Shown here in pieces: positions 1,292 to 24,000 of a DNA stretch of 24,000 nt. The DNA lies in contig NZ_UHIA01000003.1 of the NCBI RefSeq assembly GCF_900460215.1, positions 131,944 through 155,943 on the forward strand, read 5' to 3'. The DNA comes from Suttonella indologenes. Its GTDB lineage: Bacteria > Pseudomonadota > Gammaproteobacteria > Cardiobacteriales > Cardiobacteriaceae. Numbering within the stretch: position 1 is the stretch's first letter; the number at the start of each line of letters is the position of its first letter. The notes below the pieces were generated by a model. The model was not told the DNA's origin. It did no database searches and worked only from the letters and a program-made list of their open reading frames with translations. A program made the translations under genes and the position numbers.

Positions 1292-1413
1292 GAAAAAATC
1301 TACCAAAGACAAAAACCGCAAAAATCTCTGCGAAAAAATCTTTCTTTTATCTGCCGCTTAATGAATATCTATTGCCAAGTTAATAAAATCTCCTTGCCAA
1401 TCGATACATTTAG

Positions 1414-1460
1414 GCACAATATATTGTGCATGACAAAACAAAATACACCATATATTGTGA
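1414..1460 (+). promoter_or_regulatory. tandem NrdR boxes (operator of nrdGD)
   Basis: Box 1 is GCACAATATATTGTGC (1414-1429), a perfect 16-bp palindrome. Box 2 is ACACCATATATTGTGA (1445-1460). Both fit the remembered NrdR consensus acaCwAtATaTwGtgt. Their starts are 31 bp apart, which is the typical tandem spacing. Confidence 0.7.
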
Positions 1461-1963
1461 AAAATTCCTTATTTTTCTGTTCCGAAGACATTGTCTGGCA
1501 GGAAGTGCCGCAGGAAGCCTCTTTAGCTTTTTTGATTGCCGGCTGTCCGCTGCGCTGCCATGGTTGCCATAGTGCGGATTCTTGGCATCCGCAGCAGGCG
1601 CAGGCATTAAGCGCCGATTATTTGCGACAGCGCCTGCACATCTATCGCGGACTCATTACCTGTCTGCTATTTATGGGCGGCGAATGGCAGCCGCAAGCCT
1701 TGCAGGAATTGCTGCGCATCGCGCGGGCGCAGGGTTTGAAAACCTGCCTTTACACAGGAGCGGAACTTGAGGATTTGCAGCAATTGACGCCGCCTTTGCT
1801 GCCCTATTTGGATTATGTGAAAACAGGGCCTTGGAAAGCGGATTTGGGCGGATTGGACAACCCTTGCAGCAATCAGCGTTTTATCGAAGTCAGCAGCGGC
1901 AAGGTATTGAACCATCTGTTTCTCGCCCGCAATGCTAATACCAATACCGTATCGGTTTATTAA
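1430..1963 (+). CDS. nrdG: anaerobic ribonucleoside-triphosphate reductase activating protein (radical SAM)
   Basis: The ORF contains the CPLRCHGCHS radical-SAM cluster motif near its N-terminus, preceded by DIVWQEVPQE. It lies immediately upstream of nrdD. The start is set at the first ATG after NrdR box 1 and is uncertain, because box 2 lies inside this reading frame. The track's 1361 start is rejected. Confidence 0.8.
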   Translation: MTKQNTPYIVKNSLFFCSEDIVWQEVPQEASLAFLIAGCPLRCHGCHSADSWHPQQAQALSADYLRQRLHIYRGLITCLLFMGGEWQPQALQELLRIARAQGLKTCLYTGAELEDLQQLTPPLLPYLDYVKTGPWKADLGGLDNPCSNQRFIEVSSGKVLNHLFLARNANTNTVSVY

Positions 1964-1975
1964 ACAGGAGGAAAA

Positions 1976-3919: not shown

Positions 3920-4117
3920 AATCACGGACAAAACGAATTTGCACATGACAGCAGACACATCAACGGTATAGAAAGTTTTTGGAGTTTTACCAAAAGAAGG
4001 CTTGCAAAATTTAACGGTGTAAGCAAAAATTTCGAATAGCATTTGAAGGAATGCGAATGGCGCTGGAAGCAGAGTATTGATGATTTAGAAAAACATTTAT
4101 GGTCGCTTCTGCAATAA
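3920..4117 (+). pseudogene. IS1595-family transposase, C-terminal remnant with internal stop
   Basis: Own translation gives NHGQNEFAHDSRHINGIESFWSFTKRRLAKFNGVSKNFE*HLKECEWRWKQSIDDLEKHLWSLLQ*. The HINGIE(S/N)FW...KFNG...LKECEWR block is the conserved IS1595/ISXO2-like transposase tail. There is no N-terminal part and an in-frame TAG is present. Degenerate homology may extend upstream to about 3830. Confidence 0.65.
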
Positions 4118-4164
4118 ATTATACCAATCACCCTGCTAGTCTAGAGCCTCACTGATTACCGTCT

Positions 4165-4401
4165 TCACTTGATACGGCAACCAGGGCTTAAAAACTGACT
4201 CTTATACTCTTTAATCTTACTGGTACCCAACACATCGCCTACCGTCGCATTCGGATGGTTTTGTTGCAAGTAAGCCTCTACCTGTTTTTGGTAATCCTGT
4301 ATCGCCGTATTGACCGCATCTTGATTCAAGTTTTTCACCAAACCTGTCGTCTCATCCACCGTTACCCTTGTTTTAGCTTTATTTTTCGGCTTTAATGTCA
4401 A
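4165..4401 (-). CDS. hypothetical ORF, probably a gene fragment (no ATG; the track start is TTG)
   Basis: A 78-codon ORF with no internal Met. It is in the same frame as the upstream 218-aa ORF, separated only by TGA plus one codon. It looks less AT-rich than its neighbour. No family was recognised. Confidence 0.3.
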   Translation of the reverse strand: MTLKPKNKAKTRVTVDETTGLVKNLNQDAVNTAIQDYQKQVEAYLQQNHPNATVGDVLGTSKIKEYKSQFLSPGCRIK

Positions 4402-4404
4402 AGA

Positions 4405-5061
4405 TCAATCCATATTGTCACTGTCAAATAGATTTATATCACTAAATAATACCTTCAAGTAAGGTAGCCAATATTCGTAAAAAAAGGTTTTTTGAGTTTT
4501 ATCTGGTTTGTCAAAAATGATCTGTTTTTCTTCAAATCTATGGCATAAAAAGAAAGCTATTAAACTTTTTTGTTTATCATCTAATTTGGTAAAATCATTA
4601 TAATATTCATTTTTAGGATATTCTAAACCCTTTATAAATGGTGGTAAAAGGTGATTTTCCCATGCAAAAAATGATAAATCATTTAGGTTAGTCTTGGTTG
4701 GAAACTTTTGCGTTATTGTCTGAATAATAAATTTTGGGATATAAAAATTTCTCTTCGTTGGAGTTGTAAAACTTAAACCCTCATGACTTAAATCGGGAAG
4801 ATACCAATCTGGTATATCCGTCCATATTTTAAAAGGCTCAATAAATAGTCCTTGTTTTATATTATTTTCAATATAATCGATATGCTGATTTAGTGAGTTA
4901 CTCCCTTTTATGTAGCTATAGAGAGCTGACCTATCATTCCATAGTTCTTGTTTATCTAAATCTCTAAAGATAGCTATAACTAAGGATTCATTTTCCTCAT
5001 TTGAGATATCTTTGAAATTTTCATTTATTAATTTAATAAAACGATTTAATTCTATACACAT
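4405..5061 (-). CDS. hypothetical protein, very AT-rich, no recognised family
   Basis: A 218-aa uninterrupted ORF in a very AT-rich stretch, which is unlikely by chance. It has an ATG start with a weak AAGAG upstream. No signal peptide, TM segment or motif was recognised. Confidence 0.55.
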   Translation of the reverse strand: MCIELNRFIKLINENFKDISNEENESLVIAIFRDLDKQELWNDRSALYSYIKGSNSLNQHIDYIENNIKQGLFIEPFKIWTDIPDWYLPDLSHEGLSFTTPTKRNFYIPKFIIQTITQKFPTKTNLNDLSFFAWENHLLPPFIKGLEYPKNEYYNDFTKLDDKQKSLIAFFLCHRFEEKQIIFDKPDKTQKTFFYEYWLPYLKVLFSDINLFDSDNMD

Positions 5062-5173
5062 ATATAATCTCTTAACAAAATTTCAAAATATATTAGGTTC
5101 TGTTGAACATTCATATCTTAAGCCATTGATAAGCAAAGGCTAGAGCCACATTATTTTCAAAGTTTCTTTTTAG

Positions 5174-6175
5174 CTTAACCTGAGTTCGGGATAAGCCACC
5201 TTTATTTAGCAGCCGCCAAAGCATTCTTCCCAAGCATCTGCGGCTTATACGCAAACAAGCAATATGCCGTTAATCCAGAAATCAGATTCAACAAAAATCC
5301 CTTCTCTGAACGATGGCGAGTATGTTCAATTTGGCATAGATTCTTTAACTGATCAAAAATTGTTTCAACAACACATCTTTGTTTTAACAACCTTTTTTGT
5401 TCAGGACTTTGGGGCGGGGATTTCATATTCTTTTTCTTGCCTGTCAGTAAAGTGATGTTGTATCTCTTTTCTAAGCAATCGCTTAACTCTTTGCTGATAT
5501 AGCCTCTATCCCCAACCAACAATCCAAACAGTTTGTTTGCCATTTGTCGTAAGCCTTTACGGTCATCAACATTGCCTGGCGTTAGGCAGAAATTGACTAG
5601 CTCTCCTACATGATTAAACACTGCATGAAGTTTGAATCCATAGAACCAACCCATGCTGTTTTTGCCACGTTGAGCAATGTTTTTAAACACTTTATGCCTA
5701 TGAATTCGACGATTGTGACAAACAGATAAGATGGTGGAATCCACGATACTGATGCCTGTACATTTCCCCATTTGAGTACTGAGAAAAACCAACATAGCAG
5801 GTAATGCACGTTGTGCTAATTCGATAAATCGATTGTAGCTTGGCATGGTGGGGAATGCTGTTTTCCAAATGGTTTTAATTTGCCATAGATAGTAGCTTTT
5901 GAAATCACGTATGCGGATATGGTGGAAATAGATCCATACGGTAATGATTTCGCAAGTGCTGATAGAGGCTTTTCGGTTTCTGCTGTTGGGTTTGCTGATG
6001 AGTGTGCGGTTAAAGTCTGCTTCAAATGTTTTACAAAAATCATCTACTTGGCAGAAAAGTGTTGTAAGATGTTCCATGTTAAAGGGCTTTTGTGATGGTT
6101 TGTTTTGTCAAAACAGTAGATTATCACAATTGCTCTTTATTTTTTAGTGGGGTGCTTATCCCGAACTCAGGTTAA
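5174..6175 (-). mobile_element. IS982-family insertion sequence, apparently intact
   Basis: Terminal inverted repeats are TTAACCTGAGTTCGGGATAAGC (5175-5196) and its complement GCTTATCCCGAACTCAGGTTAA (6154-6175). They enclose a single transposase ORF. A possible 5-bp target duplication TTTAG lies at 5169-5173 and 6176-6180. Confidence 0.85.
5202..6077 (-). CDS. IS982-family DDE transposase
   Basis: 291 aa beginning MEHLTTLFCQVDDFCKTF..., with DRGYISKEL and VVETIFDQLKN..IEHTRHRS. These blocks are typical of IS982-family transposases as I remember them. Confidence 0.9.
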   Translation of the reverse strand: MEHLTTLFCQVDDFCKTFEADFNRTLISKPNSRNRKASISTCEIITVWIYFHHIRIRDFKSYYLWQIKTIWKTAFPTMPSYNRFIELAQRALPAMLVFLSTQMGKCTGISIVDSTILSVCHNRRIHRHKVFKNIAQRGKNSMGWFYGFKLHAVFNHVGELVNFCLTPGNVDDRKGLRQMANKLFGLLVGDRGYISKELSDCLEKRYNITLLTGKKKNMKSPPQSPEQKRLLKQRCVVETIFDQLKNLCQIEHTRHRSEKGFLLNLISGLTAYCLFAYKPQMLGKNALAAAK

Positions 6176-6292
6176 TTTAGAGGACGTTCAGAAATCTGTC
6201 TCAGTAACATATATTTATTAATCGCTTACGATTGCTATCTAGCACTCATCCAAGTATAATTAATTTCTTACATATATTGTTTTTAAAAACCA

Positions 6293-6651
6293 ATGAAAAG
6301 ACTCTTATCATCAATTATATTCATATTTATGTTTGCATCGCATGCTCAAACATCAAATGAAGAAAAACTCTCATATTATGGTTTCGATGGTGAAGTACAT
6401 AATTACATTAATAAGATTGAAAAAACTGGTAAACGCTCACCTCGAACTGATTGTGTAAATTGCGGAGCTAAAAGCGGCAGTATTGGTGGGATTTATGCCC
6501 TGATTGCTATTTTAAGGAATTTGGAGTACGTCCTGACGGTTCCAATCCTGCTAGCAGAGGAGGTGGTGGAGGATTTATTCCCGGTGGCGGTGGTTGTAAT
6601 GGTTCATGCCATATAGGTGGTGGTTATAGAAGCGGAAGAGGTCGAAAATGA
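6293..6651 (+). pseudogene. secreted Cys/Gly-rich small protein, apparently frameshifted near the A4 run at 6470-6473
   Basis: Frame 1 gives a signal peptide, MKRLLSSIIFIFMFASHAQT..., through ...TDCVNCGAK. The frame offset by +2 is open from 6472 and reads KRQYWWDLCPDCYFKEFGVRPDGSNPASRGGGGGFIPGGGGCNGSCHIGGGYRSGRGRK*. Its TGA (6649-6651) overlaps the ATG (6648-6650) of the next ORF. That frame uses GGT/GGA codons, which fits the local AT bias. The track's frame-1 tail uses GTG/GAG/CCG/GCG. Confidence 0.45.
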
Positions 6652-7004
6652 CAGACCCTAGATTATCCCCCCACAACTTAGCTGAATTAGACCTGATGCT
6701 TGCTGGGAAAAAGAATGTAAGCTATTTCTTCATGGAAATACCCCCAGAATTTCTAATCGGATACAAATATAATAGAGAAATAGAATTTTATGATTTTGCA
6801 GAAGACCCCTGTGTTTATATTTTTTATTTAGTAGGACACAGAAAGAGCGCTATAAGACTAGAACAGCTCATAAAAGAAACTCGTAAAACCAAAGAATTAA
6901 ATGAAGCAGTCGAAAGAGAAATAGGAGAAATCTTAGGATACTCAAAAGAAGAAATTGACTTCTACATTGAAACACAGAAAAAGAGATATAAAGCCCGCAG
7001 CTAA
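6648..7004 (+). CDS. hypothetical protein (118 aa), coupled to the upstream small secreted-protein gene
   Basis: An ATGA overlap with the alternative-frame stop of the upstream gene, and GGAAGAGG upstream of the ATG. The product is charged and cytoplasmic-looking. No family was recognised. Confidence 0.55.
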   Translation: MTDPRLSPHNLAELDLMLAGKKNVSYFFMEIPPEFLIGYKYNREIEFYDFAEDPCVYIFYLVGHRKSAIRLEQLIKETRKTKELNEAVEREIGEILGYSKEEIDFYIETQKKRYKARS

Positions 7005-7260: not shown

Positions 7261-7282
7261 TTATCCTATTTAGCCTTTAAAA
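7244..7282. repeat. 39-bp direct repeat, copy 2 (genuine tnaB 3' end plus 26 bp downstream)
   Basis: AAGCAATCCGAATGGCTTTATCCTATTTAGCCTTTAAAA. It includes the tnaB stop (7270-7272) and the last three sense codons plus one base of the fourth. Confidence 0.8.
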
Positions 7283-8484
7283 GCCGGCAATAGTTCCAAC
7301 ATATTCATAAAGTGGAAAATCATTACCGCCACGCCGTAAATAATCACGGCAATGACCATGCCCGAACCGCCGACGGTTTTAAATCCGCCCGCATTCGGAT
7401 GACGTTTGCGCACTTTGCTCACTAATAAGGCGGGGATAATGCAAGCCCAAATGGTCGCCGCCGCCCCTGCATAGCCGATGGCAATGACAAAGCCGAAGGG
7501 GAAGAGCAAAGATAAAATTAAAGGCGGCACAAAAGTGAATAAACAGGTAATGAAACGTCCTTTTTTATCATCGCTGCGGTGAAAGAAATCGGCGAGAAAA
7601 TCAAATAATCCCAAGCCTACGCCGATAAAGGAAGACAGTATCGCGGCGATGGAAAAGGCGTGAATGGTTTGGGCGACGGTTTTGGATTCGATGGCATTTC
7701 CCAATGCCGCCAATAAGGCTTCTATTTCGCCGCTTTTTTCAATCACAGGGGCAAATTCCGCACGCGGCAAATTGCCGAATATGCTGACTAACCAAATGAT
7801 ATAAAAACCTAAGGCGATAGAAGTGCCGCCGATAATGGCTTTTTGCGCTTTGTGTTCGTCGCCGTAATAAATCCGCATGGAGGCGACGGAGTGATGATAG
7901 CCGAAAGAGACTAATGCCACAGGCAGCATGCCGAAGAAATACGGCAGATAGGCGCCATCGGCATTATGGCTGTCAAATAAAATATCCAGTTTAATATTTG
8001 CCGCCATGCCGGAGATGCTGAAGATAAAACTCAAGCCCATAAAAATAATCAGTATGGTGGAAATTCTATCGACCAGCCTTGTGGAATGCCAAACAACCGC
8101 GGCAAATATCAGCACAAATATTATCGACATGACTTTATTATTGATTTGCGTGAGCTGCTGCAAAATACCGCCCGAGGTCGTGATATAGGCATATAGTAAG
8201 ATGCCGCCGACAAAATATACGGAAATATCATTAATCATATTCAGTTTTTTGCCCAATAAATCATTGGTTACCGTATCGAATGAGGCATGAATATCATAAT
8301 GCTTGAATGTTTCTAATAACATCAGACCGGAAATGGTCATAATCACCATTGTTAAGATAATGGCTGCCAAAGATACCCATGTCCAAGCCCCTGCGCCGGA
8401 AGTGGGCAAGCCCAGCATGCCCGCCCCTACGCAAACACCGGCGATAATACAGGCACCGCCGAAAATAGAAGGTGTTTTTTCCAT
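7270..8484 (-). CDS. tnaB: tryptophan-specific permease (HAAAP family aromatic amino acid transporter)
   Basis: A polytopic membrane protein directly downstream of tnaA. The blocks FGYHHSV, GLGLFDFLADFF and RFITCLFTFVPPL parallel the E. coli TnaB/Mtr/TyrP family as I remember it. The start is set at the ATG at 8482-8484, with AAGGA 7 nt upstream, rather than the track's TTG at 8508. Confidence 0.85.
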   Translation of the reverse strand: MEKTPSIFGGACIIAGVCVGAGMLGLPTSGAGAWTWVSLAAIILTMVIMTISGLMLLETFKHYDIHASFDTVTNDLLGKKLNMINDISVYFVGGILLYAYITTSGGILQQLTQINNKVMSIIFVLIFAAVVWHSTRLVDRISTILIIFMGLSFIFSISGMAANIKLDILFDSHNADGAYLPYFFGMLPVALVSFGYHHSVASMRIYYGDEHKAQKAIIGGTSIALGFYIIWLVSIFGNLPRAEFAPVIEKSGEIEALLAALGNAIESKTVAQTIHAFSIAAILSSFIGVGLGLFDFLADFFHRSDDKKGRFITCLFTFVPPLILSLLFPFGFVIAIGYAGAAATIWACIIPALLVSKVRKRHPNAGGFKTVGGSGMVIAVIIYGVAVMIFHFMNMLELLPAFKG

Positions 8485-8504
8485 AGCGAAATCCTTTTTC
8501 TTAG

Positions 8505-8534
8505 ACAAAAAAGGCGCGACAAATGTCGCGCCCC
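8505..8534 (-). terminator. intercistronic terminator-like hairpin between tnaA and tnaB
   Basis: The minus strand reads GGCGCGAC-ATTT-GTCGCGCC (8513-8532) followed by TTTTTTG. It lies 9 nt after the tnaA stop and about 20 nt before the tnaB ATG. Confidence 0.4.
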
Positions 8535-8541
8535 CTTGATG

Positions 8542-9957
8542 TTAAATTTCTTTCAGTCTTGCCGTGAAATGCCGCAGGACTTTCGGCTCGTAAGTGAAGT
8601 CCAAACCGCGAATTTTAGCGACATTTTCTTTCACGCGTCCAAAGGCTTCAATGATAAAGTCCATATGGGTTTGCGTGTAGGTGGCGCGCGGAATGGTTAA
8701 GCGCAGCAATTCCGCAGGGCATGGCAGTTGCTTGCCTGTTTTCGGATCGCGTCCCAATAAGAAAGACCCGATTTCCACCGCTCGAATACCGGCTACCCGA
8801 TAGAGTTCGCAAGACAATGCCTGCGCGGGGAATTGTTCGGCAGGGATATGCGGCAGCAAGCGTCCTGCATCCACAAAAGCGGCATGTCCGCCGGGCTGCT
8901 GGCAATAAATGCCGATAGCTTCCAAACCTTCGACCAGGTACCGCACTTGGGCAATGCGGTATTCCAGCCAGTCTTGGCGCATACCGTCGCGCAGACCGAC
9001 GGCTAAACGTTCCATCGCACCGCCTTCCAAGCCGCCGTAAGTCGGGAAGCCTTCCTGCACCACGCATAAGGTGCGGCAGGCATTATATTCTTCCAGCCAT
9101 TTCTCGTCTTTAAAGCAGAGCAGACCGCCCATCGGCACCATGGCGTCTTTTTTTGCCGACATCGCCAGCATATCGGCGTATTTGTAGGATTCGTAGGTAA
9201 TTTGCTCAATCGTCCAATCGGCATATTCTTTTTCACGCTGCTGAATAAAATAAGCGTTTTCGGCAAAGCGCGCGGAATCCATGACTACCGGAATATCGTA
9301 TTTTTTCGCGATTTCATAAGCGGCTTTCATATTGGCGATAGATACGGGTTGTCCGCCGGCGGAATTGCAGGTAATCGTCAGCACGATATAAGGCACATGT
9401 TGCGGACCGATTTCCTGAATGCTTTGTTCTAATTTTTCCAAATCAAAATTGCCTTTGAAATCTTCATAGACTTTGGTATTAAAAGCATTCGGCGTATAAA
9501 CATTGCGCGCAACGCATTGATTGATTTGCGTATGCCCCTGCGTGGTATCAAAGAAATAATTGGAAATCGCGACCATTTTGCTGCGGTCGCCGCCTTTTTC
9601 GCGCAGGCATTTTTCAATCAATACGGGAATATAGACCTGCTCCGCTCCGCGACCTTGATGCGTGGGAATGGTGTATTCATAACCGAAAATCTCTTTTACC
9701 GCCTTGCACAAAGCATGATAACTGCGGCTGCCGCTATATGCCTCGTCTCCGCGCAGCATTGCCGCCTGCATGTCTTGAGTGACGGCACCTGTTCCGCTAT
9801 CGGTTAATAAATCGATGAATACGTCTTCGCTGTCTAATAAAAAAGGATTCATGCCGGCGCGTTTCAGCGCTTCTTCACGGTATTCAATGGTCGTACGTTT
9901 GACGGGTTCAATAACGCGGATGCGGAAAGGTTCTGGTAAATGTTTAAAATTGTCCAT
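8542..9957 (-). CDS. tnaA: tryptophanase (tryptophan indole-lyase)
   Basis: 471 aa. [23 protein letters not shown]...[23 protein letters not shown]...[15 protein letters not shown]...[21 protein letters not shown] is nearly collinear with E. coli TnaA as I remember it, including the PLP-lysine region SAKKD. AAGGA lies 6 nt upstream of the ATG. Confidence 0.95.
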
Positions 9958-13600: not shown

Positions 13601-15793
13601 AACCGCAGCAACCAAGGTTTTATCGCCTAAATCATAAAGCGATTTTCCGGCAATCTTGACCTCAAAATCACCGCCTGTCTGCACGGTCGATTTGCCTAAG
13701 CGCTGCGTGCCCGCATAAATGCTCACCGCATCGCCCTGCTTAAATTCGCCTTCAATGCGTCCTTTCACGACGACATCCTGCGCGATTTCCGCTACAGAAA
13801 CCCGATTGTCATCGCCGGCAATGCTCTCAATTTGCGCGCTTGCCTCCAATTGCGTATCTACTTGATACGTCAAAGGTAAAGACTGCGCTGTTTTGCCGTC
13901 TACACGAATCACCGCATGAATTCGATTACCGCCTTCTGCGCCGGCCAAGTCCTTGCCTTGAAGCGTCAATTGCCAAGTTTTATCTGCCGCATGAGGCGTC
14001 GCCTGTCCCAACAATACATTATTTTTATAGACTTCAATCTTGAACGGATCAAGCGCTGCATATTCGTCATGAGCATAAACGCCTCGAATAATAACGGATT
14101 TATTCAAATCATTGGCATTAATCAAACCGTCATCCACCGCCGCCACGGTAATGCTAGGCTCAATCTGAGAAGCATCAATCTCATACGGCTGCTCCGTCGT
14201 CTGCGTTGTAGGATTGCCCGCCTTATCAAGCGCTTTAATACTGGCGCTGACTTTTTGCTGCCCCCGAAGAACTGCGCCGTCAACCTCCAAACGAAAGGTT
14301 TTATCCGATTCGTTTATAATGACTTTCGGATTTAAACCGGCAGAAGAATAAATATTGCTGCCGATGCTAAGCTCAATCTGTAAATCGGCTAAATCTTCTG
14401 CCTGCACTTGATAAGAGCCGTTAATAACAAAAGTCTTACTTAATTGCTCCTGACTCAGCTTACCGCTGCCTATCGCATTGAGGCTGATGCTGATTTGCGG
14501 CGCTTGCAAATCCACCTGATAGGTCTTGCTTTCTTCGGCGAGTTTTGTCGTATCCTTATCCATGATTTCGACTTTGACCTTATCGCCCTGCACAACGCCG
14601 CTGCCTGCAAAATCCACCGTAAAATTGCCTTCATTATCGATTTTGATTTGATCGCGTGTTGCCACGCAAGCCACACAGCCGCAGGTAATTTTAATCGCAT
14701 CTTCAATCAATAAGCCTTTAATTTTACCGCTTACGGTAATATTGCCGGCAGATTCTTCGATATTCACCACATTATCTTGCGTGACATCATCAATGCTGAT
14801 GCTCGGCATCAAGCGGTAATCTTGGCTACCGCTAACCGTTGCTGATTGTCCATTTGTCTGCGTACCCTTAACCGTTGCGCTGATTTGACTATGATTGGAC
14901 AATGTCGCCCCGTCCACCTCAAAGCTAAAACCGCCGTTTTGCAACTGTGCGCGATAGTGATTGCCGCCGATATTCAGCACAACTTCCGCGCCGTCTTGCA
15001 TATGGCTGACCTTGCCGACAATCATCTGTTTTTGTGCCGCCTCTGCGGTATCAATCAAATTATCACCCGTGATTTTTTCAAATGTCACTTTGGAAACCAA
15101 AGCATTTGGCGTATTTGGCGTATTTGGCGTATTTGGCGTATTTGGCGTATTTGGCGTATTTGGCGTATTTGGCGTATTTGGCGTATTTGGCGTATTTGGC
15201 GTATTTGGCGTATTTGGCGTATTTGGCGTATTTGGCGTATTTGGCGTATTTGGCGTATTTGGCGTATTTGGCGTATTCGGCGTATTCGGCGTATTCGGCG
15301 TATTCGGCGTATTCGGATTTGCAGGAGTCTGCGCCTTAGTATCGGCATCATTCTTATCGCTGCCGCCGGCTGCGCTCAAACCAATCGCGCCCACCGCCGT
15401 CGCAATCCCCAGACTTGGCAGCAAGATACTGCTTGTTTGCACTTGGCTTGCCTGCAAAGCCGCCTGCGGCGTGCCTTCAGGCAGCGTGGCAAAGCTTTGA
15501 TTTGCCGTTTCAAATACCGTCAGCTGACTAGCGTCGCTGATAAAGCCGCCTTGATACGCCGTGATCGCATGGTCTTCGATAATCAGCAAAGGCTCGGAGA
15601 CACCCTCTTTCAAAATCCATAAATCATTGCCTTTGATAATAAATTCCGGATTATTAATCAGGCTGCCGTTCTCTGCCAACAGTTGATACTGCATATCGCC
15701 CAAGGCTTTCAAATGCACGGTTTGACCGCTGCTTAAATGAATCGATGAACTAAGCCCTTCGCCGCGATAAACATGAAATACGTAGGCAGCCAT
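10637..15793 (-). CDS. giant T1SS-type secreted protein: BapA/LapA-like N-terminal module, PNT linker, Ig-like repeats, serralysin-type metzincin domain, RTX repeats
   Basis: 1718 aa from the ATG at 15791-15793, with AGGAGA 4 nt upstream; the track's TTG start at 15814 is rejected. Repeated ~90-100 aa modules of the type (I/V)TGDN.IN..EA......G carry an Ig-like adhesin signature. [13 protein letters not shown] plus the downstream LLSYES and [10 protein letters not shown] blocks match serralysin (M10B). The repeats [35 protein letters not shown] are RTX nonapeptides. The C-terminus ...DNNSFIVV is an acidic-then-hydrophobic T1SS-type tail. Confidence 0.9.
   Translation of the reverse strand: [1718 protein letters not shown]
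10891..11280 (-). repeat. RTX (GGxGxDxUx) calcium-binding nonapeptide repeat blocks within the giant CDS (approximate bounds)
   Basis: Translated blocks are [37 protein letters not shown] and [37 protein letters not shown]. Confidence 0.85.
11942..11974 (-). other. zinc-binding motif [11 protein letters not shown] (HExxHxxGxxH) of the metzincin domain
   Basis: Codons were read directly and are in frame with the giant CDS. Confidence 0.9.
15104..15319 (-). repeat. tandem 9-bp repeat encoding (Pro-Asn-Thr)x23
   Basis: 19 contiguous ATTTGGCGT units (15104-15274) are followed by 4 ATTCGGCGT units (15275-15310) and a partial unit. On the minus strand these read CCA/CCG AAT ACG. The repeat is in frame with the giant CDS. 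Confidence 0.95.
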
Positions 15794-15923
15794 ATTGTCT
15801 CCTGAATGATTCAAAAATAAGATTAGAAAATGACCGTAATTTTATCTTTTTTATCATTTAGCGACAATCCGTCCGCCATAATTTTAGCGCCTAAGCTACT
15901 AAAATTAAGAATTAATCAGCCTC

Positions 15924-16796
15924 TCATTTCTCCCCATACACCGCCCAAGCCTTGAGTACCGCCTGCGCCCAATTGCTGTGCGTGCTGACTTCCTGCATAG
16001 TGGCATCGGCATTAAATACCGCCCTTTGACTGGAGAGAATCTGCTCGGCGAGGTATTTATCGCCGGCAGAGACGCGGTAATGCCGCTCAATCAGGGGAAT
16101 TTGTTCGGGGTGAATGGCGGTTTTGCCGATTAAGCCGTAGCGCAAATCTTCCTGTACTTCCTGCGCCAGCAATGCCTGTTCTTCCAAAAATTCAAATACG
16201 GGCGCAGTCAAATAAAAGCCGTAGGGCTTGAAGATACCGACCAAACGCGCAATCAATACGCCCAATGCGCCTTGATAAATCGTGGCATCGCGCGAGCGGC
16301 GCATGTGCAGCAGGCTCAATAAATCATTGCCGCCGATGCGCAGACATAAAATCCTTGCGAACCATTCGGGATGCAATAATTGGCGGCGCAAATCCAGCAT
16401 CGCGCTTTCAAGGAAGGTATCGCCGGTTTCCAAAGTCGGCATCAGGGCAAAATCATAAGACAGCAGCGGCGCATACTCATGCAGATTATGCGGACTTATT
16501 TTCGGCAGAACAAAGCCGCTGATTTTCTCAATACCGCGCAATTGCAAGATTTCCTGCATCACTTGCGGATTGCGCAGGCGGATAAAATGCAGCCGTCGGT
16601 CTTGCGCCGGCAAGGTATCTAATAATAATTGCAATTGCGCAAAAGCTTGCGGCAAATCATTGGGATGCAGGGCATCTTCGGTGCAATAAATCAAGCTGCG
16701 CACAAAGCCGAGCCTGTCGCCGCGCGCAATCGCCGGCAATTGCTCGTGAATGGCAGGCACATATAAAGAAGCGCCTAGTTGATAAGGATTAATCAT
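15924..16796 (-). CDS. HpcH/HpaI aldolase / citrate-lyase beta (CitE)-like family enzyme
   Basis: 290 aa. The motif series SLYVPA, YCTEDAL, GFVLPKI, MPTLETGD, LRIGGNDL and GKTAIHPEQI parallels the CitE/HpcH TIM-barrel signature blocks (LFVPG, DLEDAV, lPKv, IET, fG..Dl, IHP.Q). Its start overlaps the upstream gene's stop by 8 nt. Confidence 0.7.
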   Translation of the reverse strand: MINPYQLGASLYVPAIHEQLPAIARGDRLGFVRSLIYCTEDALHPNDLPQAFAQLQLLLDTLPAQDRRLHFIRLRNPQVMQEILQLRGIEKISGFVLPKISPHNLHEYAPLLSYDFALMPTLETGDTFLESAMLDLRRQLLHPEWFARILCLRIGGNDLLSLLHMRRSRDATIYQGALGVLIARLVGIFKPYGFYLTAPVFEFLEEQALLAQEVQEDLRYGLIGKTAIHPEQIPLIERHYRVSAGDKYLAEQILSSQRAVFNADATMQEVSTHSNWAQAVLKAWAVYGEK

Positions 16797-17871
16797 GATT
16801 TCTTTTCTGAATAAGGGCGGTGGCTAAATAAGGCAGTCGGGGGCGAATCTCAATCGTCACCTGCTTTTCCGCCGCCAATTGCCGCAAATGTTGCACGGCG
16901 GGCAAATCGGCATCGCGCAGCAGCAGTCTTTGCGGCTGACGACGCAACAAGACGCGTGTGGCTTCGCCGATGCCGGGCTTGATTAAATTCACATTACCGA
17001 TGGCAAATTCCGCCTGCATGGCGGCAATGAAATCGCGGTTCTGCTGCGCTCTTTCCGCGGTCGGCAAAGGCTGTGCCGGCGGCAAATCGCCCTGCGGCAC
17101 GTGATTGAGCAAATCCCGAATAAAACGCTGCGACACATCATGCGCCGCCCATTCTTTAAAAAACACGCAGCCGTGAAAATCCGTCGCGCCAATCTGTTCA
17201 TTCAAAATCGAACGACTGACCAAACCGCTCACGCAAGCATTTAAAATCGCCGAAGGAATCAAATAATCCTCGCTGCCGGCGGCAAAAGGCGTTACGCCCG
17301 CCAAATCGCTCAAAACATACAAATCGCTGCTCAAATTCACATCTTCGCGCCGATTAACATCCGCCACCGCCTTGCACAATTCGCGATGAATCACGCCCTT
17401 GCCCGTCCAGCCGTCGATAAACACAATCTGCTCGGACGCAAAACCCTGCTGCAAAATATAGCGCAACGCATTGGCATCAATCCCGCGATCACGAATAATC
17501 GAGACGGAAAAATGCGGCACCTGTCTGCCGTAATGCCAGCTTAATATCGCCTGCAAAGCCACGCCCACCGGCGTCCCCGCCCGTGCCAAAGAAACCAAAA
17601 CCGGCGCCTGCCGCTCTCGGGCAATCAAAGCCGCCAATTGTCGGCAATCCTGCGCCATCTGCGGCAAATGCTGCGCGCAGGCGCGTTCGAACAAAGCCCA
17701 ATACGCCGGCGAAGGCAAAGCCTCGGGCGAAAGCATCTCGCTATAATGCTTCGCCCCCGTTTGAATCAAACGCTCTTTTTCTTTCACGTCCTCCATCAAT
17801 TGCATCTCGATCGGCTTGAGCAAAAACTGCACCTGATGCGGCAAATAACTGCCATGAAAGGCTTTCATCAT
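16789..17871 (-). CDS. PRTase_2/TRSP-domain phosphoribosyltransferase-like protein (family often labelled 'cysteine protease StiP')
   Basis: 360 aa. VLVSLARAGTPVG and IVFIDGWTGKG resemble the PRTase fold and PRPP-loop motifs. The size and overall pattern match the ter-associated PRTase family as I remember it. The ATG overlaps the jetD stop (ATGA). Confidence 0.6.
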   Translation of the reverse strand: MMKAFHGSYLPHQVQFLLKPIEMQLMEDVKEKERLIQTGAKHYSEMLSPEALPSPAYWALFERACAQHLPQMAQDCRQLAALIARERQAPVLVSLARAGTPVGVALQAILSWHYGRQVPHFSVSIIRDRGIDANALRYILQQGFASEQIVFIDGWTGKGVIHRELCKAVADVNRREDVNLSSDLYVLSDLAGVTPFAAGSEDYLIPSAILNACVSGLVSRSILNEQIGATDFHGCVFFKEWAAHDVSQRFIRDLLNHVPQGDLPPAQPLPTAERAQQNRDFIAAMQAEFAIGNVNLIKPGIGEATRVLLRRQPQRLLLRDADLPAVQHLRQLAAEKQVTIEIRPRLPYLATALIQKRNHD

Positions 17872-19031
17872 TCATTCTCCTTAATGTTTGCGGCATTTGC
17901 GATTATCTGCCAAGCCCAATGCCAATCAATCCGCTCTTGTTCAAGACGCAGATGCTGGGCATAACGATTGTTTTTTAAGGTCTCATACAATGACTGCTCA
18001 GTCGGCATCAGCCCTTCAAATCCATCCGCGCTATGCGGTTTGTCTTCCCTACCCCATAAACTTTGATGCGCCAGCATAGTCGCTTCGTCCATTAAAATCG
18101 ATTGCAAATGCGGCACATAAGTGCGTGCGCGGTGCAAAATCGCAAAACCGTGCGTATCGATATCGCCCCAATAATACACATACGCCTGTTTGAGCCAAAC
18201 GATTTCCGCCAAGACATCTACCGCATAGCCCAAACCCATCATCACGACCGTCTGCCGCATATCCGTAAATGCCAAACCGGTTTGCACATTCTCCACGATA
18301 AAGACTCGCCGCGGCGCAATCGCCAATGCGGCAATTTCTGCCACCGGTGCCGAAATATCGCTTAAACCGCCGCACAGCCTGCGTAAATCCGCATCTAAAA
18401 TACGCATACGCAAACGTGTCGGCGGGGCGAGCAAGCCCGTACAGGCATAGAAATCTTTTTCGTTCAAACCGCCGCGGATAGCCGACAAACAATCTACAAT
18501 CAATCCCTTGCGACTTTCTAACCATTTGCTGTCCATGCCTGCAATCGGCAATTGGCGCGGATAAAGCGAAGCAGCCTCATGCTCAATCAGCCAAAGCAGC
18601 AAATGCTGCAAACGTAAAAAATCCTCATCACTATAGGAACTGAGCTTTTCAATATGTTTCGCTGCCACGCCGGCCAGCTGCCGCCATTGATTCACCAAGG
18701 ATTGATAGCGCTTTCTCATGCTTTGCCAAGCCTCTGCCCGACCTATGGCGGCGGCAAGCGCTTCCGCTTGTGTGAATAGCAATTTTTCGGGCAATCTTTG
18801 CACGGACAAATGTTTCCATTGTTTTTGACTGTACCGCAACTCACCGCCGCCCTGCCATTTCTGCCAAGCTTGCAGCCAAGCGAGAAAACGCTGCATATCC
18901 TGCTGAGCCTTCTGCTCGCTCGGCAAGCCCAGCGATACGGAACATTCGCCAAATCCCTGCTGCAGCCATTGTCGATAATTCGCATCAAAGCGGCGGCGCA
19001 ATATGTTCAGCACATCGTCTGGAAATTTCAT
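17868..19031 (-). CDS. jetD: Wadjet JetD (DUF3322 + DUF2220/Toprim nuclease subunit)
   Basis: 387 aa. The C-terminal Toprim-like motifs are VFIVENVQTGLAF (Glu) and YYWGDIDTHGFAIL (DxD). It sits directly after the SMC-like ATPase with an ATGA overlap. Confidence 0.85.
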   Translation of the reverse strand: MKFPDDVLNILRRRFDANYRQWLQQGFGECSVSLGLPSEQKAQQDMQRFLAWLQAWQKWQGGGELRYSQKQWKHLSVQRLPEKLLFTQAEALAAAIGRAEAWQSMRKRYQSLVNQWRQLAGVAAKHIEKLSSYSDEDFLRLQHLLLWLIEHEAASLYPRQLPIAGMDSKWLESRKGLIVDCLSAIRGGLNEKDFYACTGLLAPPTRLRMRILDADLRRLCGGLSDISAPVAEIAALAIAPRRVFIVENVQTGLAFTDMRQTVVMMGLGYAVDVLAEIVWLKQAYVYYWGDIDTHGFAILHRARTYVPHLQSILMDEATMLAHQSLWGREDKPHSADGFEGLMPTEQSLYETLKNNRYAQHLRLEQERIDWHWAWQIIANAANIKENE

Positions 19032-22000
19032 TGCGCCGCATCCGCCGGCACATTCAGCCGCTGATGCGATTCGTCATAATCAATCAGCAAGACGGAAGAA
19101 TATTTGCGTTCGGAAATATCGACAAAGCAAGCCCCGCCGATAAAGGGTTCCAACGTCATCACCGATTTCAAAGGCGTTGCCACAATCATCTGAAAGCCAA
19201 AATTAATGAAAATATTCATTGCCAAGGCGGTAAATTCATTATCCGCCTTATCAAAAGCCTCATCGAGCACCACAGGAGCATACATCGGCAAACCGTGATC
19301 ATGCCCGCCTAATTGATAACGCAAAGCTGCCGCCAAACAGGTAGCCGCCAATTTTTGCCGCTGACCGCCCGATTTTGCCGCACCGCTGCGATGCGTTTCC
19401 AACACCTTTCCTGCCTCATCATACTCAAGCCCGATAAATTCCACATGCAGGCGCACATCCAACATCAACTCGCGCCAACGCTTCGCCTCTGCTTCCGTGC
19501 CGGATAAGCGCTGCACGATTTTCTGCAAAATTAAAAACCGCGCCTCCGCCTCTTCGCGCGATTCCTGCACAAAAGCATGGCTTAATGCCTGCTGAATATC
19601 TTTTCTAAATTCCTTCACTTCGGGCAAATAGCGGTCTTTTACCTCAATTTTCAAAAAACTTTTTTCTCCGCCCTGCTGATTAAAAGGCACCTGCCCCAGA
19701 CTCTCATTCACCAGCTCCATACGATGCAGAATATCCTTGCGCGCCTGCATTAAATAGCTGGACAAGGCGGCAAGATTCTGCTGACTCTGACTCTGCAGCA
19801 AATCAAAAAACCGCTGCTCATATTCCGGCAGACCGTCACTTTCCAAACGATTTAATTTATTGAAATAATCGCCGGCGCTCGCCAAGCTCGCATCCACATC
19901 GCCGGCTTCCGCCTGCCAACGCCGCTTAAATTCCGCAAAACATTCTTCAATAAAACGCTCATGACTATGAATCTGCTTAGTCTGCCCTTTGATGTCCTCG
20001 CTTAATTGCCGCTCAACCGCCAAAGTTACCTCAGACAAATTCTCTTGCGTCAGCTCTTTGGCAATCGATTGAAACCGCTCGGCAAGCGCCTCTTTTTCAC
20101 GCGGGAGCAATGTAGCCAGTGCCTGAGTCTGTAAATGCTCTAATTGCTTTTGATATTTAGCCAAATCCTGTTCAATCTGCAAATAAGCCAACCGCGCTTG
20201 CTCCCAAACCTCTTTGACCTTCTGATAGCGGCTGTGCTGCTGCTCAATCTCCGCTTCTAACGTCTGCAAATGCTGTGCATCTTGCCGCAGACGATCAATC
20301 TGCCGATTTAAGGCATCAATATGTTTTACCGCACTCGATACATCGACATCCTGCCAATTTAGCAGCATCAGACGATGACAATAACCCATGCGCTCTTCCT
20401 GCTGCTTTTTCTTTTTCTGCAGACCATCAATCGTTTGCTCAAGCGCTTCGATTTCCGCCTCAAGCTGATGCAATTGCTGCTGGTACAAAGCCAATTTCTC
20501 GCGATTATCAAAACCCAAGACCCATTGACGGCGCTCATTTAGCGCATGACGGTCATCTTTTTCATGACGCATCTGATTATGTTTAATCTGCCCTTCTTGG
20601 GTAAGCGCACGTTCGACTTGGCGCAATGCCGCCAAATTCTCAACGCAGACATAATCGAAACGCTGCCGCAACTGCTGCTCCAGCCAATAACGATGCGGAT
20701 GCTCTTTAATCTGTAATTTATGCAATACCGAATCCGTCGAGCGCAAAGAAGAAGGGCTTTTATCGACTCCGCTTAAGCGATAAAACACCAATCGCTGCCC
20801 TAATTGCCGCTCATTCACATATTTATTGACACCGGCATACTGCGCTTCATCTACCAACAAAGACAAAGCAAAACCGCGCAGCAAACGCTCGATTGCCCCA
20901 CGCCAAGCAGCTTCTTGCGCTTTCACCTCCAAAAGCTCGCCGACAAAAGGAAACTGACTTTCATGCACATTCAAAGCCTCGGCCATCTCTCGGCGCAAAG
21001 TCAGCAGAGTTCTTGGAATATTGGAAGGCTGGCGCAGCATCTCCAGAATATCCGCCTGCAAAGAATCCCGCTCTTGCAAGGCTTGATTCAGCGCCTGCTT
21101 AAGCGCGATATAGCGCTCGTTTTCCGAATCATAACGAGCATTCCAGTCTTCTTTTTCTTGCTGTGCCGATACACTGAGCTGGGCAAATTCCTCTACCGTA
21201 TTAGGAAAATGCCAATCCAAAGCCAGACAAATCTTCTGCAATTCCGCCGATTGCTGCACCCGTTTATCCCGTTTGTCTTCCCAATCCCTGCACGCCTGCT
21301 CCAAATGCCTCAGCTCGCTGCCGCCTGCCGCCAAATGCTGCAATCTGAGATTTTCCAGCAATACTTCCTGATGATTTTTCTCCTGCTCCGCCTGCTGCTG
21401 CACATGCTGCTGATGATGCTGCCGCTTCATCAAACGCTCAATCGCTTTGCCCAACAATTGCCGACGACAATGATTGCTATAAATATCAATTCCTTGCTTT
21501 AATTGCTCATGATAGCTGCGCAAAGATTGCAGATGAACATATTCCTGATGCGCCTGAGCTGCGGGACGCAATACCGCAATCTGCTCACGCGCATCCACCA
21601 CCGCCCGATATGCCGCATTCAACTCGGCGAATTCATTGACCAAACGCTGCGCCACCGCAAATGTTTGCGGTTTATCCAGCATAAAATCGCGCAAAAACAC
21701 ATTTAAATCGCCTAAATTCTTCGCCGACTGCGTTTTATGCAGCAAGCGCAAAGCCATCTCGCTCTCTATGCCCAATAAATGGCGAAACCTTTCTGCGTAA
21801 GCGCTGAACTCTTCGCGGATAAAAGCCTGCGAAAAAGTTTGCTTAAGTTTGCGGAGATCAAAATTACTCTCTGCAAAACTCTGCAAAGCCCGCAAATCAA
21901 AATCGCCCTCGCTAATCAAATACACGCGCCGCACATCGGTATTGCTATTGCTATTGCCGCGCAGCCAAAAAATCTGCACCAAGACCACCACGCGTCCCGA

Positions 22001-22381
22001 AGGATTTTCATAACGCAAAGCCAAAGCGCTCCAAGTCGTTCCTGTGCGCAAATAACGCGTGGCAATTTCCCCCGAATCATCGTCTTTTTGCTCCGACCAT
22101 GCTCCGCGCACATAGCTCAACACATTCCGATCATGACCGCTGCGCGCCATTTCACGCGCGGCAGCATTAAAATCCAGCCAACGCGGCGGCACAAGCAAAG
22201 CCGAAATGGCATCTAATAAAGTGGATTTTCCAGCCCCGGAACGCCCGACAAATAAAAAACCTTTCTCGCTTATCGGAATATGATGCAGGCCATGAAAAGT
22301 GCCCCAATGATAGACCTGCAAAGCGCGCATTCTAAATTGCTCGGTCTCAAACAAAGACAAATTATAATCCGCACTACTCAT
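19028..22381 (-). CDS. jetC: Wadjet JetC (SMC/MukB-like ATPase)
   Basis: 1117 aa from the ATG at 22379-22381, with AGGAGG 6 nt upstream. Walker A is GRSGAGKSTLLDA. A long Q/E/L-rich coiled-coil middle is followed by the signature SGGQRQKLA and Walker B VVLDEAFDKAD. Confidence 0.9.
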   Translation of the reverse strand: MSSADYNLSLFETEQFRMRALQVYHWGTFHGLHHIPISEKGFLFVGRSGAGKSTLLDAISALLVPPRWLDFNAAAREMARSGHDRNVLSYVRGAWSEQKDDDSGEIATRYLRTGTTWSALALRYENPSGRVVVLVQIFWLRGNSNSNTDVRRVYLISEGDFDLRALQSFAESNFDLRKLKQTFSQAFIREEFSAYAERFRHLLGIESEMALRLLHKTQSAKNLGDLNVFLRDFMLDKPQTFAVAQRLVNEFAELNAAYRAVVDAREQIAVLRPAAQAHQEYVHLQSLRSYHEQLKQGIDIYSNHCRRQLLGKAIERLMKRQHHQQHVQQQAEQEKNHQEVLLENLRLQHLAAGGSELRHLEQACRDWEDKRDKRVQQSAELQKICLALDWHFPNTVEEFAQLSVSAQQEKEDWNARYDSENERYIALKQALNQALQERDSLQADILEMLRQPSNIPRTLLTLRREMAEALNVHESQFPFVGELLEVKAQEAAWRGAIERLLRGFALSLLVDEAQYAGVNKYVNERQLGQRLVFYRLSGVDKSPSSLRSTDSVLHKLQIKEHPHRYWLEQQLRQRFDYVCVENLAALRQVERALTQEGQIKHNQMRHEKDDRHALNERRQWVLGFDNREKLALYQQQLHQLEAEIEALEQTIDGLQKKKKQQEERMGYCHRLMLLNWQDVDVSSAVKHIDALNRQIDRLRQDAQHLQTLEAEIEQQHSRYQKVKEVWEQARLAYLQIEQDLAKYQKQLEHLQTQALATLLPREKEALAERFQSIAKELTQENLSEVTLAVERQLSEDIKGQTKQIHSHERFIEECFAEFKRRWQAEAGDVDASLASAGDYFNKLNRLESDGLPEYEQRFFDLLQSQSQQNLAALSSYLMQARKDILHRMELVNESLGQVPFNQQGGEKSFLKIEVKDRYLPEVKEFRKDIQQALSHAFVQESREEAEARFLILQKIVQRLSGTEAEAKRWRELMLDVRLHVEFIGLEYDEAGKVLETHRSGAAKSGGQRQKLAATCLAAALRYQLGGHDHGLPMYAPVVLDEAFDKADNEFTALAMNIFINFGFQMIVATPLKSVMTLEPFIGGACFVDISERKYSSVLLIDYDESHQRLNVPADAAQ

Positions 22382-23018
22382 CCGCATCCTCCTGCGCCTC
22401 AAACACCGGCGCTTGATGTGCGGCAATGTGCCGATATTGCCGCGTCAACTCTTGAACCTCTTCCGCCGAAAAGAGCAATTTCAACACCGGCGAAATTTCA
22501 AAACGCCCTTCGCTATTGCGAATTTTTTGCAAAATATTCGGTTTTTTCATTTTCTCTATCGCTGCCTGTATGCGTCTGAGAAACAAAGCCCGATCCGTAT
22601 TGCCGCTGCGCTCAAAAGCCATGAAATATTCCACAATCTCATTTTCGGATACCACCGCCCGTCGCCCCTGCGCCTGCGCTTGAATCAATTGCTGACGCAA
22701 AAACAAAAGCAAGACGGAAGCCTCGAAATTCAAAGGCAGACTTTTCAACATTCGCGGCGCCTCCAACTCTTGCGTATCCGCCTGACGTACAAAAGCAATT
22801 TGTGATGACGTATCAATAATCAACTCTAAAAATAAAGCCGATAAATAACGGCGGATATTCTCTTCATCTTGCAGCAATGCCTGCCATAATCTGCCATGAT
22901 AACGCGCATCCAATGCCGGCCCCTGCAACAACTGAATTAAAGCGCGGCGGCTTTCCAAACACAAATCTCCCGTATCACCGACATATAGCGGCTCAATTGC
23001 CTGCTCTTCAGAATCCAT
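22374..23018 (-). CDS. jetB: Wadjet JetB (DUF4194, MukE/kleisin-partner-like)
   Basis: A 214-aa acidic protein, with LIQLLQGPALDARYHGRLWQALL...IRRYLSALFLELIIDT typical of DUF4194 as I remember it. It lies between jetA and jetC with overlaps on both sides. Confidence 0.8.
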   Translation of the reverse strand: MDSEEQAIEPLYVGDTGDLCLESRRALIQLLQGPALDARYHGRLWQALLQDEENIRRYLSALFLELIIDTSSQIAFVRQADTQELEAPRMLKSLPLNFEASVLLLFLRQQLIQAQAQGRRAVVSENEIVEYFMAFERSGNTDRALFLRRIQAAIEKMKKPNILQKIRNSEGRFEISPVLKLLFSAEEVQELTRQYRHIAAHQAPVFEAQEDADE

Positions 23019-24000
23019 GCTTATCTCTCACAAAAAACAATTTATCAATCCTTGCCCTGCGCAACAGACCATCTTGCCCCTGCCATTGCACCATTTCCGT
23101 CTCCTGCGTCTTAATTCCATCACGACTGGCCAAAGACAATAAGCCGAGCACACTACCCAAACCTTGAGTTGCCGGAAAATCCTCCAAAACCTGCGCAACC
23201 GATGCCTGCGAATGCTTAAGCAACACCTGACGCACATTCTCCTGCAAACGGCGATAATCAATCTCAGATTGCGCCAGCAAATTGCCGACTGCCGCCAAAT
23301 CCACCGTCGCCGCTTCCGCCTCCTGCATCGCCGCAGGATCAGCCTGCTGACTGGGATCATATAAGCGCCATTGGGAAAGAGAATGCACCGCACTGCTGCT
23401 TAAATGCAAGTGATAATTCAACTGCTGCCTAGCGCGCGCCTTATCTTTTACCGCCAAAGCCGCCAACTGCGCCTCACGCAAAAGCGTATTCAAGCGGCGA
23501 AACTCCAAATATTCACGACTTTGCACAAAATGACGCAAACTACCGGCAAAATTACTCAACACATCATGCACCACGCCGCCCTGTTCTAATAAGACCTTCG
23601 TCAAATTCAATAAAAATTGTCGCTCACGGCTCGTTAACTCGCGTACGAAATGGCGCGACATAATCTCCTCAAGCGCCGATTCCAAAGTACTGGACTGCTC
23701 CTGATCAATCAGCAAACGCCAAAACGCTGCGAAAGTCTTGCCCGCCTCGCTCTCGCTAATCACATCCATGCCCGCAAACAAAGCCTCTAAGACTTCGCCG
23801 CGATTCGCCTCTTCTAAAATCTTTTCACGCAAATCGCGATTGAGCTGCTCAAACTCATCGCGCACACGGCGAAAATCACCTAACAATTCATCAGCCAAAC
23901 TAATAATCTCGCGACAACGCTCAACAGCGCGATCCTTGGGCATCACCCGCAACTGCCCTTGCTCAATCGCGGCAATTTCCTGATCAATCCGCGCCCGTTC
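23008..24000 (-). CDS. jetA: Wadjet JetA (DUF3375, MukF-like), C-terminal 330 codons; gene continues beyond window end
   Basis: The reading frame is open from 24000 (ERARIDQEIAAIEQGQLRVMPKD...), so the track's TTG start at 23952 is not the real start. Position and size fit JetA. The call rests on context and general resemblance. Confidence 0.75.
   Translation of the reverse strand, partial: ERARIDQEIAAIEQGQLRVMPKDRAVERCREIISLADELLGDFRRVRDEFEQLNRDLREKILEEANRGEVLEALFAGMDVISESEAGKTFAAFWRLLIDQEQSSTLESALEEIMSRHFVRELTSRERQFLLNLTKVLLEQGGVVHDVLSNFAGSLRHFVQSREYLEFRRLNTLLREAQLAALAVKDKARARQQLNYHLHLSSSAVHSLSQWRLYDPSQQADPAAMQEAEAATVDLAAVGNLLAQSEIDYRRLQENVRQVLLKHSQASVAQVLEDFPATQGLGSVLGLLSLASRDGIKTQETEMVQWQGQDGLLRRARIDKLFFVRDKHGF

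Follow-up and report, generated by a model that had tools for sequence, protein, structure and literature searches.

In type I Wadjet systems, JetA, JetB and JetC form a complex resembling those of the structural maintenance of chromosomes (SMC) family, which is loaded onto DNA and detects circular molecules of small size, and these are cleaved by JetD, a Toprim nuclease. The system works as four genes. Reportedly, Anantharaman, Iyer and Aravind predicted in 2012 that the enzymes encoded in tellurite-resistance (ter) clusters help to make a nucleoside-like metabolite. Here we describe a locus in which genes of these two kinds are joined in one array. It lies at positions 15924-24000 of the stretch of DNA that was analysed (the window, 24,000 nt of contig NZ_UHIA01000003.1, filed under Suttonella indologenes), which belongs to the same species as a set of contigs named Rappaport israeli (Cardiobacteriaceae); the species is called R. 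israeli below. The Wadjet genes jetABCD are followed on the minus strand by genes for StiP and for a C-C bond lyase. An earlier note on this DNA had taken the six genes for a Wadjet variant with its own two-enzyme module. In the best reading of the present analysis the "operon" of six genes arose by a local fusion and does not represent a new type of Wadjet: a canonical type I cassette was probably inserted into the ter cluster of R. israeli, between the StiP-lyase pair and its upstream region. Each of the two modules belongs to a known family and is ordinary in itself; only their fusion is new, and it is limited to one species. No published description of a Wadjet system linked to StiP, TerD or tellurite resistance was found in the literature.

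The genes of the array and the features at its borders are as follows.

15794-15923, minus strand: intergenic gap of ~130 nt from the lyase stop to the ATG of an RTX gene (sequence and gene calls)
15924-16796, minus strand: C-C lyase, HpcH/CitE-like, TIM-barrel, 290 aa (PF15617, 1e-78)
16789-17871, minus strand: StiP, PRTase_1-type domain and C-terminal PELOTA_1, 360 aa (PF11202, 4e-97; PF15608, 5e-29)
17868-17882, minus strand: jetD/StiP junction, Shine-Dalgarno sequence in the jetD tail and ATGA overlap (read from the sequence)
17868-19031, minus strand: jetD, DUF3322 and Toprim JetD_C (PF11795, 2e-39; PF09983, 5e-51; PADLOC JetD1, 1e-125)
19028-22381, minus strand: jetC, SMC-like ATPase, 1117 aa (AAA_29 and SbcC_Walker_B; PADLOC JetC1, E=0, 1369 bits)
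22374-23018, minus strand: jetB, DUF4194, MksE-like (PF13835, 1e-42; PADLOC JetB1, 4e-82)
23008 to beyond 24000, minus strand: jetA, DUF3375, 3' two-thirds (PF11855, 8e-89; PADLOC JetA1, 1e-120)

Every junction between the six genes is an overlap, of 11 nt for jetA/jetB, 8 nt for jetB/jetC, 4 nt for jetC/jetD, 4 nt (ATGA) for jetD/StiP and 8 nt for StiP/lyase, and by the coordinates of the open reading frames (ORFs) jetD has an ATGA overlap at both its 5' and its 3' end. These coordinates and overlap lengths agree exactly with those of the earlier note. The ~130 nt that separate lyase and RTX gene, the first real gap, are borne out as well by the sequence and the gene calls, and a terminator scan in this gap found nothing above chance. 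For jetC the ATG at 22381 was taken as the start, which yields 1117 aa and matches the gene calls on contigs of the same species; a mechanical ORF list gives a TTG at 22426. Since jetA leaves the window, its matches in Pfam and PADLOC rest on the 314 aa inside it, the full length being 483 aa on same-species contigs (L001, 3413-4864).

The assignment of the jet genes to type I Wadjet was confirmed for all four by the Pfam and PADLOC searches that had been suggested with it. PADLOC places JetA to JetD in type I (JetA1-D1) at E-values of 1e-82 down to 0, and the sequence hallmarks of this type are in place, with DUF3375 in JetA, DUF4194 in JetB, the ATPase heads in JetC and DUF3322 plus Toprim in JetD. 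In JetC, Pfam places AAA_29 at residues 34-92 and SbcC_Walker_B at residues 988-1073, the PADLOC match spans the full length, and the translation carries Walker A (GRSGAGKST) and Walker B (VVLDEAF) motifs. The Toprim residues E247 and D290-x-D292 are invariant in the JetD alignment. Gene order (jetA-B-C-D), overlapping junctions and intact ATPase and Toprim motifs are thus those of described type I Wadjet systems (JetABCD, also MksBEFG-like). The locus differs from these in that two non-Wadjet genes are fused 3' of the operon, that the cassette is nested in a ter cluster and that the nearest foreign JetD is merely 52% identical. By analogy with the described systems, jetABCD presumably acts as a stand-alone plasmid sensor and cleaver.

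For the two genes 3' of jetD, the HpcH/CitE-like lyase had been named correctly (PF15617, 1e-78), whereas the label PRTase_2/TRSP for StiP is ruled out by Pfam. StiP consists of PF11202 (StiP, formerly PRTase_1) and PF15608 (PELOTA_1), and PRTase_2/TRSP is the other phosphoribosyltransferase (PRTase) linked to ter. StiP had no match in the PDB by sequence search. An AlphaFold (AF2) model was built from 20 homologues (predicted local distance difference test score, pLDDT, 86; predicted template modelling score, pTM, 0.88), and its best PDB folds are PyrR, HGPRT and OPRT, which are type I PRTases (Foldseek probability ~1, target TM ~0.5). A motif resembling the phosphoribosyl pyrophosphate (PRPP) loop, FxDGWTGKG, is invariant in the StiP alignment. 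As far as the fold is concerned, "PRTase-like" is thus a fair description of StiP. According to PMC11994780, the name "cysteine protease StiP" goes back to a study of Acinetobacter baylyi cited there. The lyase showed a weak sequence link in the PDB to CLYBL/CitE (E=0.004), and neither StiP nor the lyase matched a PADLOC model.

The earlier note had traced both enzyme genes to ter neighbourhoods, and here it proved right, since a complete ter cluster stands on the same-species contigs. Eight intact contigs (L001-L004 and L011-L014) extend past the edge of the window. On these the full ter arm starts 138 bp 5' of jetA and is divergent from it. Outward from jetA follow a VWA gene (211 aa), a strain-variable cassette, a second VWA gene (213 aa) and TerD (386 aa), and farther out TerY (VWA and TerY_C), PP2C, a Ser/Thr kinase, TerC and TerD. 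StiP and the lyase are hence linked to TerD, TerC and TerY genes within 10 kb on the same contigs, outside the window. The statement that TerD, ATP-grasp and HAD genes are all lacking held in part: TerD is absent from the window only, and the premise of no TerD nearby fails because the window edge had cut off the ter arm. For ATP-grasp, PRTase_2+TRSP and HAD, a search of R. israeli limited to the 10 kb to each side found none.

With StiP and its PELOTA domain beside C-C_Bond_Lyase and an 8-nt overlap between the two genes, the pair has the form that it takes in the ter biosynthetic module (Anantharaman 2012; pPNAP04 and enterobacterial ter plasmids), and the flanking TerD, TerC, TerY/VWA, PP2C and kinase genes are alike too. 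StiP homologues are present on 2573 plasmid records. The same 8-nt overlap between StiP and lyase is common to L005, L016, L018, L019 and L182, the last being the Polaromonas plasmid pPNAP04. The R. israeli version of the module, like that of its closest relatives, is cut to two genes, whereas the set of ATP-grasp, PRTase_2+TRSP and HAD enzymes is present at L005 and L182. On pPNAP04 (Polaromonas naphthalenivorans) the order is ATP-grasp, PRTase, HAD, StiP and lyase, and HAD and StiP overlap by 4 nt. An ATGA-coupled StiP is therefore normal, and in R. israeli jetD fills the upstream position that is otherwise held by a ter gene such as HAD. Judged from these gene junctions, tight coupling is a trait of the ter module itself.

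The layout without Wadjet can be read in the relatives. The closest StiP relatives on long contigs (P0004 and P0006, loci L015-L017 and L019) are both 65% identical to StiP of R. israeli. They carry TerD, TerC, kinase, PP2C, TerY, TerD387, VWA213, TerD206 and VWA211 (the numbers give lengths in aa) in the order and orientation found in R. israeli, and the StiP-lyase pair lies ~142 bp from VWA211, divergent from it, with no jet genes. The ter proteins on both sides of the jet block have counterparts in these relatives at 46-83% aa identity, and only jetABCD is extra. At L005 (StiP 64% identical) PRTase_2+TRSP, TerD, kinase and TerC make up a ter cluster that has no jet genes, and at L008 (62%) StiP and lyase form a free-standing pair without jet genes. 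Among the non-self StiP proteins that have any context, the closest (80%) is encoded on a 4.3-kb metagenome contig (L018, 1-2381), where the pair stands 40 bp 3' of a gene similar to MFS transporters, with neither jet nor ter genes in view. The StiP-lyase pair thus changes its surroundings even between close relatives. Jet genes are missing from the neighbourhoods of all five StiP relatives (62-80% identical) that were compared in this way.

Base composition sets the two groups of genes apart in the same way. The GC content at third codon positions (GC3) is 0.545 for jetA, 0.530 for jetB, 0.523 for jetC and 0.531 for jetD; for the seven genes of the ter arm it is 0.61-0.70, for StiP 0.637 and for the lyase 0.581. 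The ranges of jetA-D and of the ter genes on both sides do not overlap, and StiP and the lyase group by GC3 with the ter genes across the jet block. Such a break is what is predicted by foreign DNA inserted into a pre-existing ter cluster. The reverse history, loss of Wadjet in the relatives instead of a gain in R. israeli, was rejected on parsimony, since ter clusters of distant bacteria (Polaromonas, Accumulibacter, Xanthomonas and others) are also without Wadjet, and because GC3 breaks at the jet block.

Linkage of jetD with StiP and lyase was counted in two censuses, both with tblastn using the window proteins and with profile hidden Markov models for detection. For StiP, one genome per GTDB species was used and the best 80 loci were taken with up to 10 kb of flank per side, 74 of which have at least 1.5 kb upstream of StiP. 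A lyase is near StiP in 69 of the 80 loci and TerD lies within 10 kb in 51-52 of the 80. The only locus with jet genes is L022, which is R. israeli B08008, and none of the 73 other loci with upstream room has them. For JetD, the 80 best-matching loci were drawn from metagenome contigs, and at least 1.5 kb downstream is available in 54 of them. StiP, lyase, TerD, TerY and PP2C were found only at L102, which is from the same species (98-99% identity); at the other JetD loci with downstream room, StiP, lyase or ter genes were found in 0 of 53. The nearest foreign JetD, that of Neisseria dentiae with the 52% identity given above, belongs to a plain jetABCD operon with a 345-bp gap and a convergent LysR gene.

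These counts bear directly on the proposal of a true Wadjet variant, in which a small molecule made by StiP and lyase (a signal, a cofactor or a modified nucleotide) is needed by JetABCD or forms a second layer of defence. The proposal can draw on the overlap at every junction, with ATGA and Shine-Dalgarno sequence at jetD/StiP, on the block of six genes being kept in all intact R. israeli contigs seen, and on the fold of StiP, which according to the model would be that of nucleotide-metabolism enzymes (PRTase). The recurrent linkage that it had been expected to show was seen in one species only (0/73 and 0/53 elsewhere). StiP-lyase is an ancient ter pair with the same 8-nt overlap where no Wadjet is present, the nearest JetD relatives are plain four-gene systems, the GC3 of StiP and lyase sides with the ter genes and not with jetA-D, and type I Wadjet, as is well established, functions with four genes. 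A variant of Wadjet that has its own module of two enzymes is thus unsupported; what is seen is a one-off adjacency within a complete ter cluster, the counterpart of which in the relatives has no Wadjet, and we regard the variant as highly improbable. A functional partnership between Wadjet and StiP-lyase is probably absent.

The junction at which the two modules meet reads AAGGAGAATGAATGATGAAAGCC. An AAGGAG Shine-Dalgarno sequence at 17882-17877 is followed after 5 nt by the ATG of StiP (17871-17869), and the TGA of jetD is at 17870-17868. In the alignment the N-terminus of StiP is MMKA-FHGS here and M-FHGS in the relatives, and therefore the junction was remodelled during or after the insertion. 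Given the tight overlaps together with the ATGA and the Shine-Dalgarno sequence at this junction, the co-expression that the earlier note had assumed is plausible, and the six genes are likely to be co-transcribed. In a consensus scan of 15600-24000, 11 promoter-like sites were counted against 8.7 +/- 2.7 in shuffled sequence and 14 terminator-like sites against 14.1 expected.

A different possibility is that StiP and lyase have kept, or gained, a promoter of their own in the 3' end of jetD. One sigma-70-like site, TTGATT-16-GATAAT with 9 of 12 matches, does lie there on the minus strand at 17929-17902, ~30 nt 5' of the StiP ATG. However, promoter-like sites occur at chance level in this region, no terminator-like structure is found near the end of jetD, and an ATGA overlap with a Shine-Dalgarno sequence is the classic signature of a shared transcript. 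Independent transcription of the pair therefore seems quite unlikely to us.

For the preferred reading, insertion of jetABCD into the ter cluster, the following course can be proposed. The ancestral layout would have been TerD-TerC-kinase-PP2C-TerY-TerD-VWA-TerD-VWA, ~140 bp of divergent intergenic DNA and then StiP-lyase, as the relatives have it. jetABCD would have been inserted between the divergent intergenic region and the start codon of StiP, which would have left StiP and lyase as the last two genes in an array of six. Most likely the pair would then be transcribed by read-through from the jetA promoter, and StiP would most likely be translated by means of the strong Shine-Dalgarno sequence in the tail of jetD and the ATGA stop-start overlap. 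StiP and the lyase would presumably serve the TerD/TerC/TerY machinery, not Wadjet, in the role that they have in other ter clusters. Both the direction of the insertion and the functional independence of the two modules are what we infer from these comparisons.

The ter arm has received a second insert of this kind. Between the two VWA genes a strain-variable cassette is present at L011 6619-7677 and also on L002 and L003 (1472-2530). It encodes a 169-aa PRTase-like protein (PADLOC PsyrT 9e-19, ShosT 1e-4) and a 181-aa DprA/SLOG-like protein (ShosA 2e-4, Pfam DNA_processg_A 1e-3), and by these matches it would be a Shosta/PsyrTA-like toxin-antitoxin defence pair. The other R. israeli contigs have just a 54-aa ORF at this site and the relatives have the 206-aa TerD gene there. 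With a second defence cassette between its VWA genes, the ter locus therefore accepts defence cassettes.

The nested position of jetABCD also allows for a partnership that takes in the entire locus, with Wadjet serving the ter system (TerY-PP2C-kinase, TerD/TerC and StiP-lyase) as an arm for DNA processing. In favour of this, jetABCD has the TerY/VWA arm on one side and the ter biosynthetic genes on the other, and so does not merely border the cluster, and the 138-bp intergenic region shared by the ter arm and jetA contains two promoter-like sites, one per strand, where 0.5 is expected. PMC11090510 reports an association of TerY-P modules with systems for DNA processing, and also with cassettes that lie nested between VWA genes. 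The CoCoNuTs treated there offer a close likeness, in that a nucleic-acid-targeting defence is embedded within a TerY-PP2C-kinase/VWA array and not beside it, and the Shosta/PsyrTA-like cassette between two TerY-like VWA genes fits the same picture. The association of CoCoNuTs, however, is reported to recur across many genomes and to define subtypes, whereas the one described here is limited to R. israeli. Of the 80 JetD loci, none but that of this species has relatives of TerD, TerY, PP2C or the kinase within 10 kb, and jet genes are likewise missing from the rest of the 80 StiP/ter loci. In PADLOC the ter arm matched no TerY-P defence model and gave only weak kinase matches (PD-T4-6, mad6); unlike the TerY-P defence system (Gao et al. 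2020 type), the TerY, PP2C and kinase proteins here form what their order of Pfam domains shows to be a classical ter triad.

The combination is also not strictly maintained within the species. In the reference strain B08008 (L022, 1-5910 of NZ_LXHZ01000016.1) similarity to the window begins at jetA residue 193. The DNA 5' of jetA holds an IS5-like insertion sequence (IS) of the ISKpn26 family, with 97-98% identity to copies in Escherichia coli. The ter arm is no longer adjacent, and its place is taken by plasmid-like genes for a ParA-like ATPase, a resolvase and an HNH protein. jetC matches in three frames. Either Wadjet is inactivated in B08008 or the assembly is chimeric or error-prone. Taken together, we consider the use of Wadjet by the ter system as a DNA-processing arm unlikely. 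That ter and Wadjet form one functional unit in R. israeli, with the StiP-lyase product or TerY-PP2C-kinase modulating JetABCD or with Wadjet as the effector of ter, is in our judgement very unlikely. If it were true, this would be a first natural case in which a small-molecule or phospho-signalling module is coupled to an SMC-type defence complex, and regulation of Wadjet by ter products would give a handle on what the ter enzymes make and on small-molecule regulation of SMC-type defence.

Several points weigh against an insertion without functional consequence. The jetD/StiP junction is oddly clean for a random insertion, and its ATGA and in-gene Shine-Dalgarno sequence imply selection for joint expression; joint expression with jetABCD, if selected, is also the expected product of a functional partnership. 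The six genes stay together, as an unbroken block, in all eight intact same-species contigs, among which there is no empty-site strain lacking the jet genes. A linkage frequency of up to ~4-5% elsewhere may still be compatible with censuses of the best 80 loci. When the VWA-jetA intergenic DNA is aligned to the VWA-StiP intergenic DNA of the relatives, only the VWA coding part aligns, and therefore the use of the old promoter of the pair by jetA is only conjecture. Finally, according to PMC11090510, Anantharaman et al. (2012) predicted partnerships between ter modules and DNA-processing systems.

The rest of the window lies 3' of the array. The RTX (HemolysinCabind) protein encoded 3' of the lyase contains near its N-terminus a (PNT)n tract, which corresponds to a 9-bp tandem repeat at 15104-15313 with 23 copies of 99% identity. 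The protein has 1725 aa here and 1658 aa on L001, and the blastn alignment breaks at the repeat, so the repeat number seems to be strain-variable. Positions 1361-3766 and 7270-9957 hold housekeeping neighbours, namely the anaerobic ribonucleotide reductase activase with NrdD (PF13597, 2e-104) and tryptophanase (Beta_elim_lyase) with a Trp/Tyr permease, and no signs of a mobile island were seen among them on that side. From 4000 to 7000 the GC content is low (0.33-0.37, against 0.46 for the window). This stretch contains a DDE transposase at 5202-6077 (PF13612, 4e-67), a 218-aa ORF at 4405-5061 with a sub-threshold match to DUF6714 and two small ORFs without a family, and is probably an IS-associated insertion unrelated to the Wadjet/ter finding.

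The R. israeli array is a cautionary case, as tight overlaps and an apparent operon can arise from a lineage-specific insertion, and as the ter genes that account for the two extra enzymes were concealed by the edge of the window. With a type I Wadjet system and a Shosta/PsyrTA-like pair, the ter cluster of this species would be a landing pad for defence cassettes, which fits the place of ter loci in the pool of defence and stress genes.

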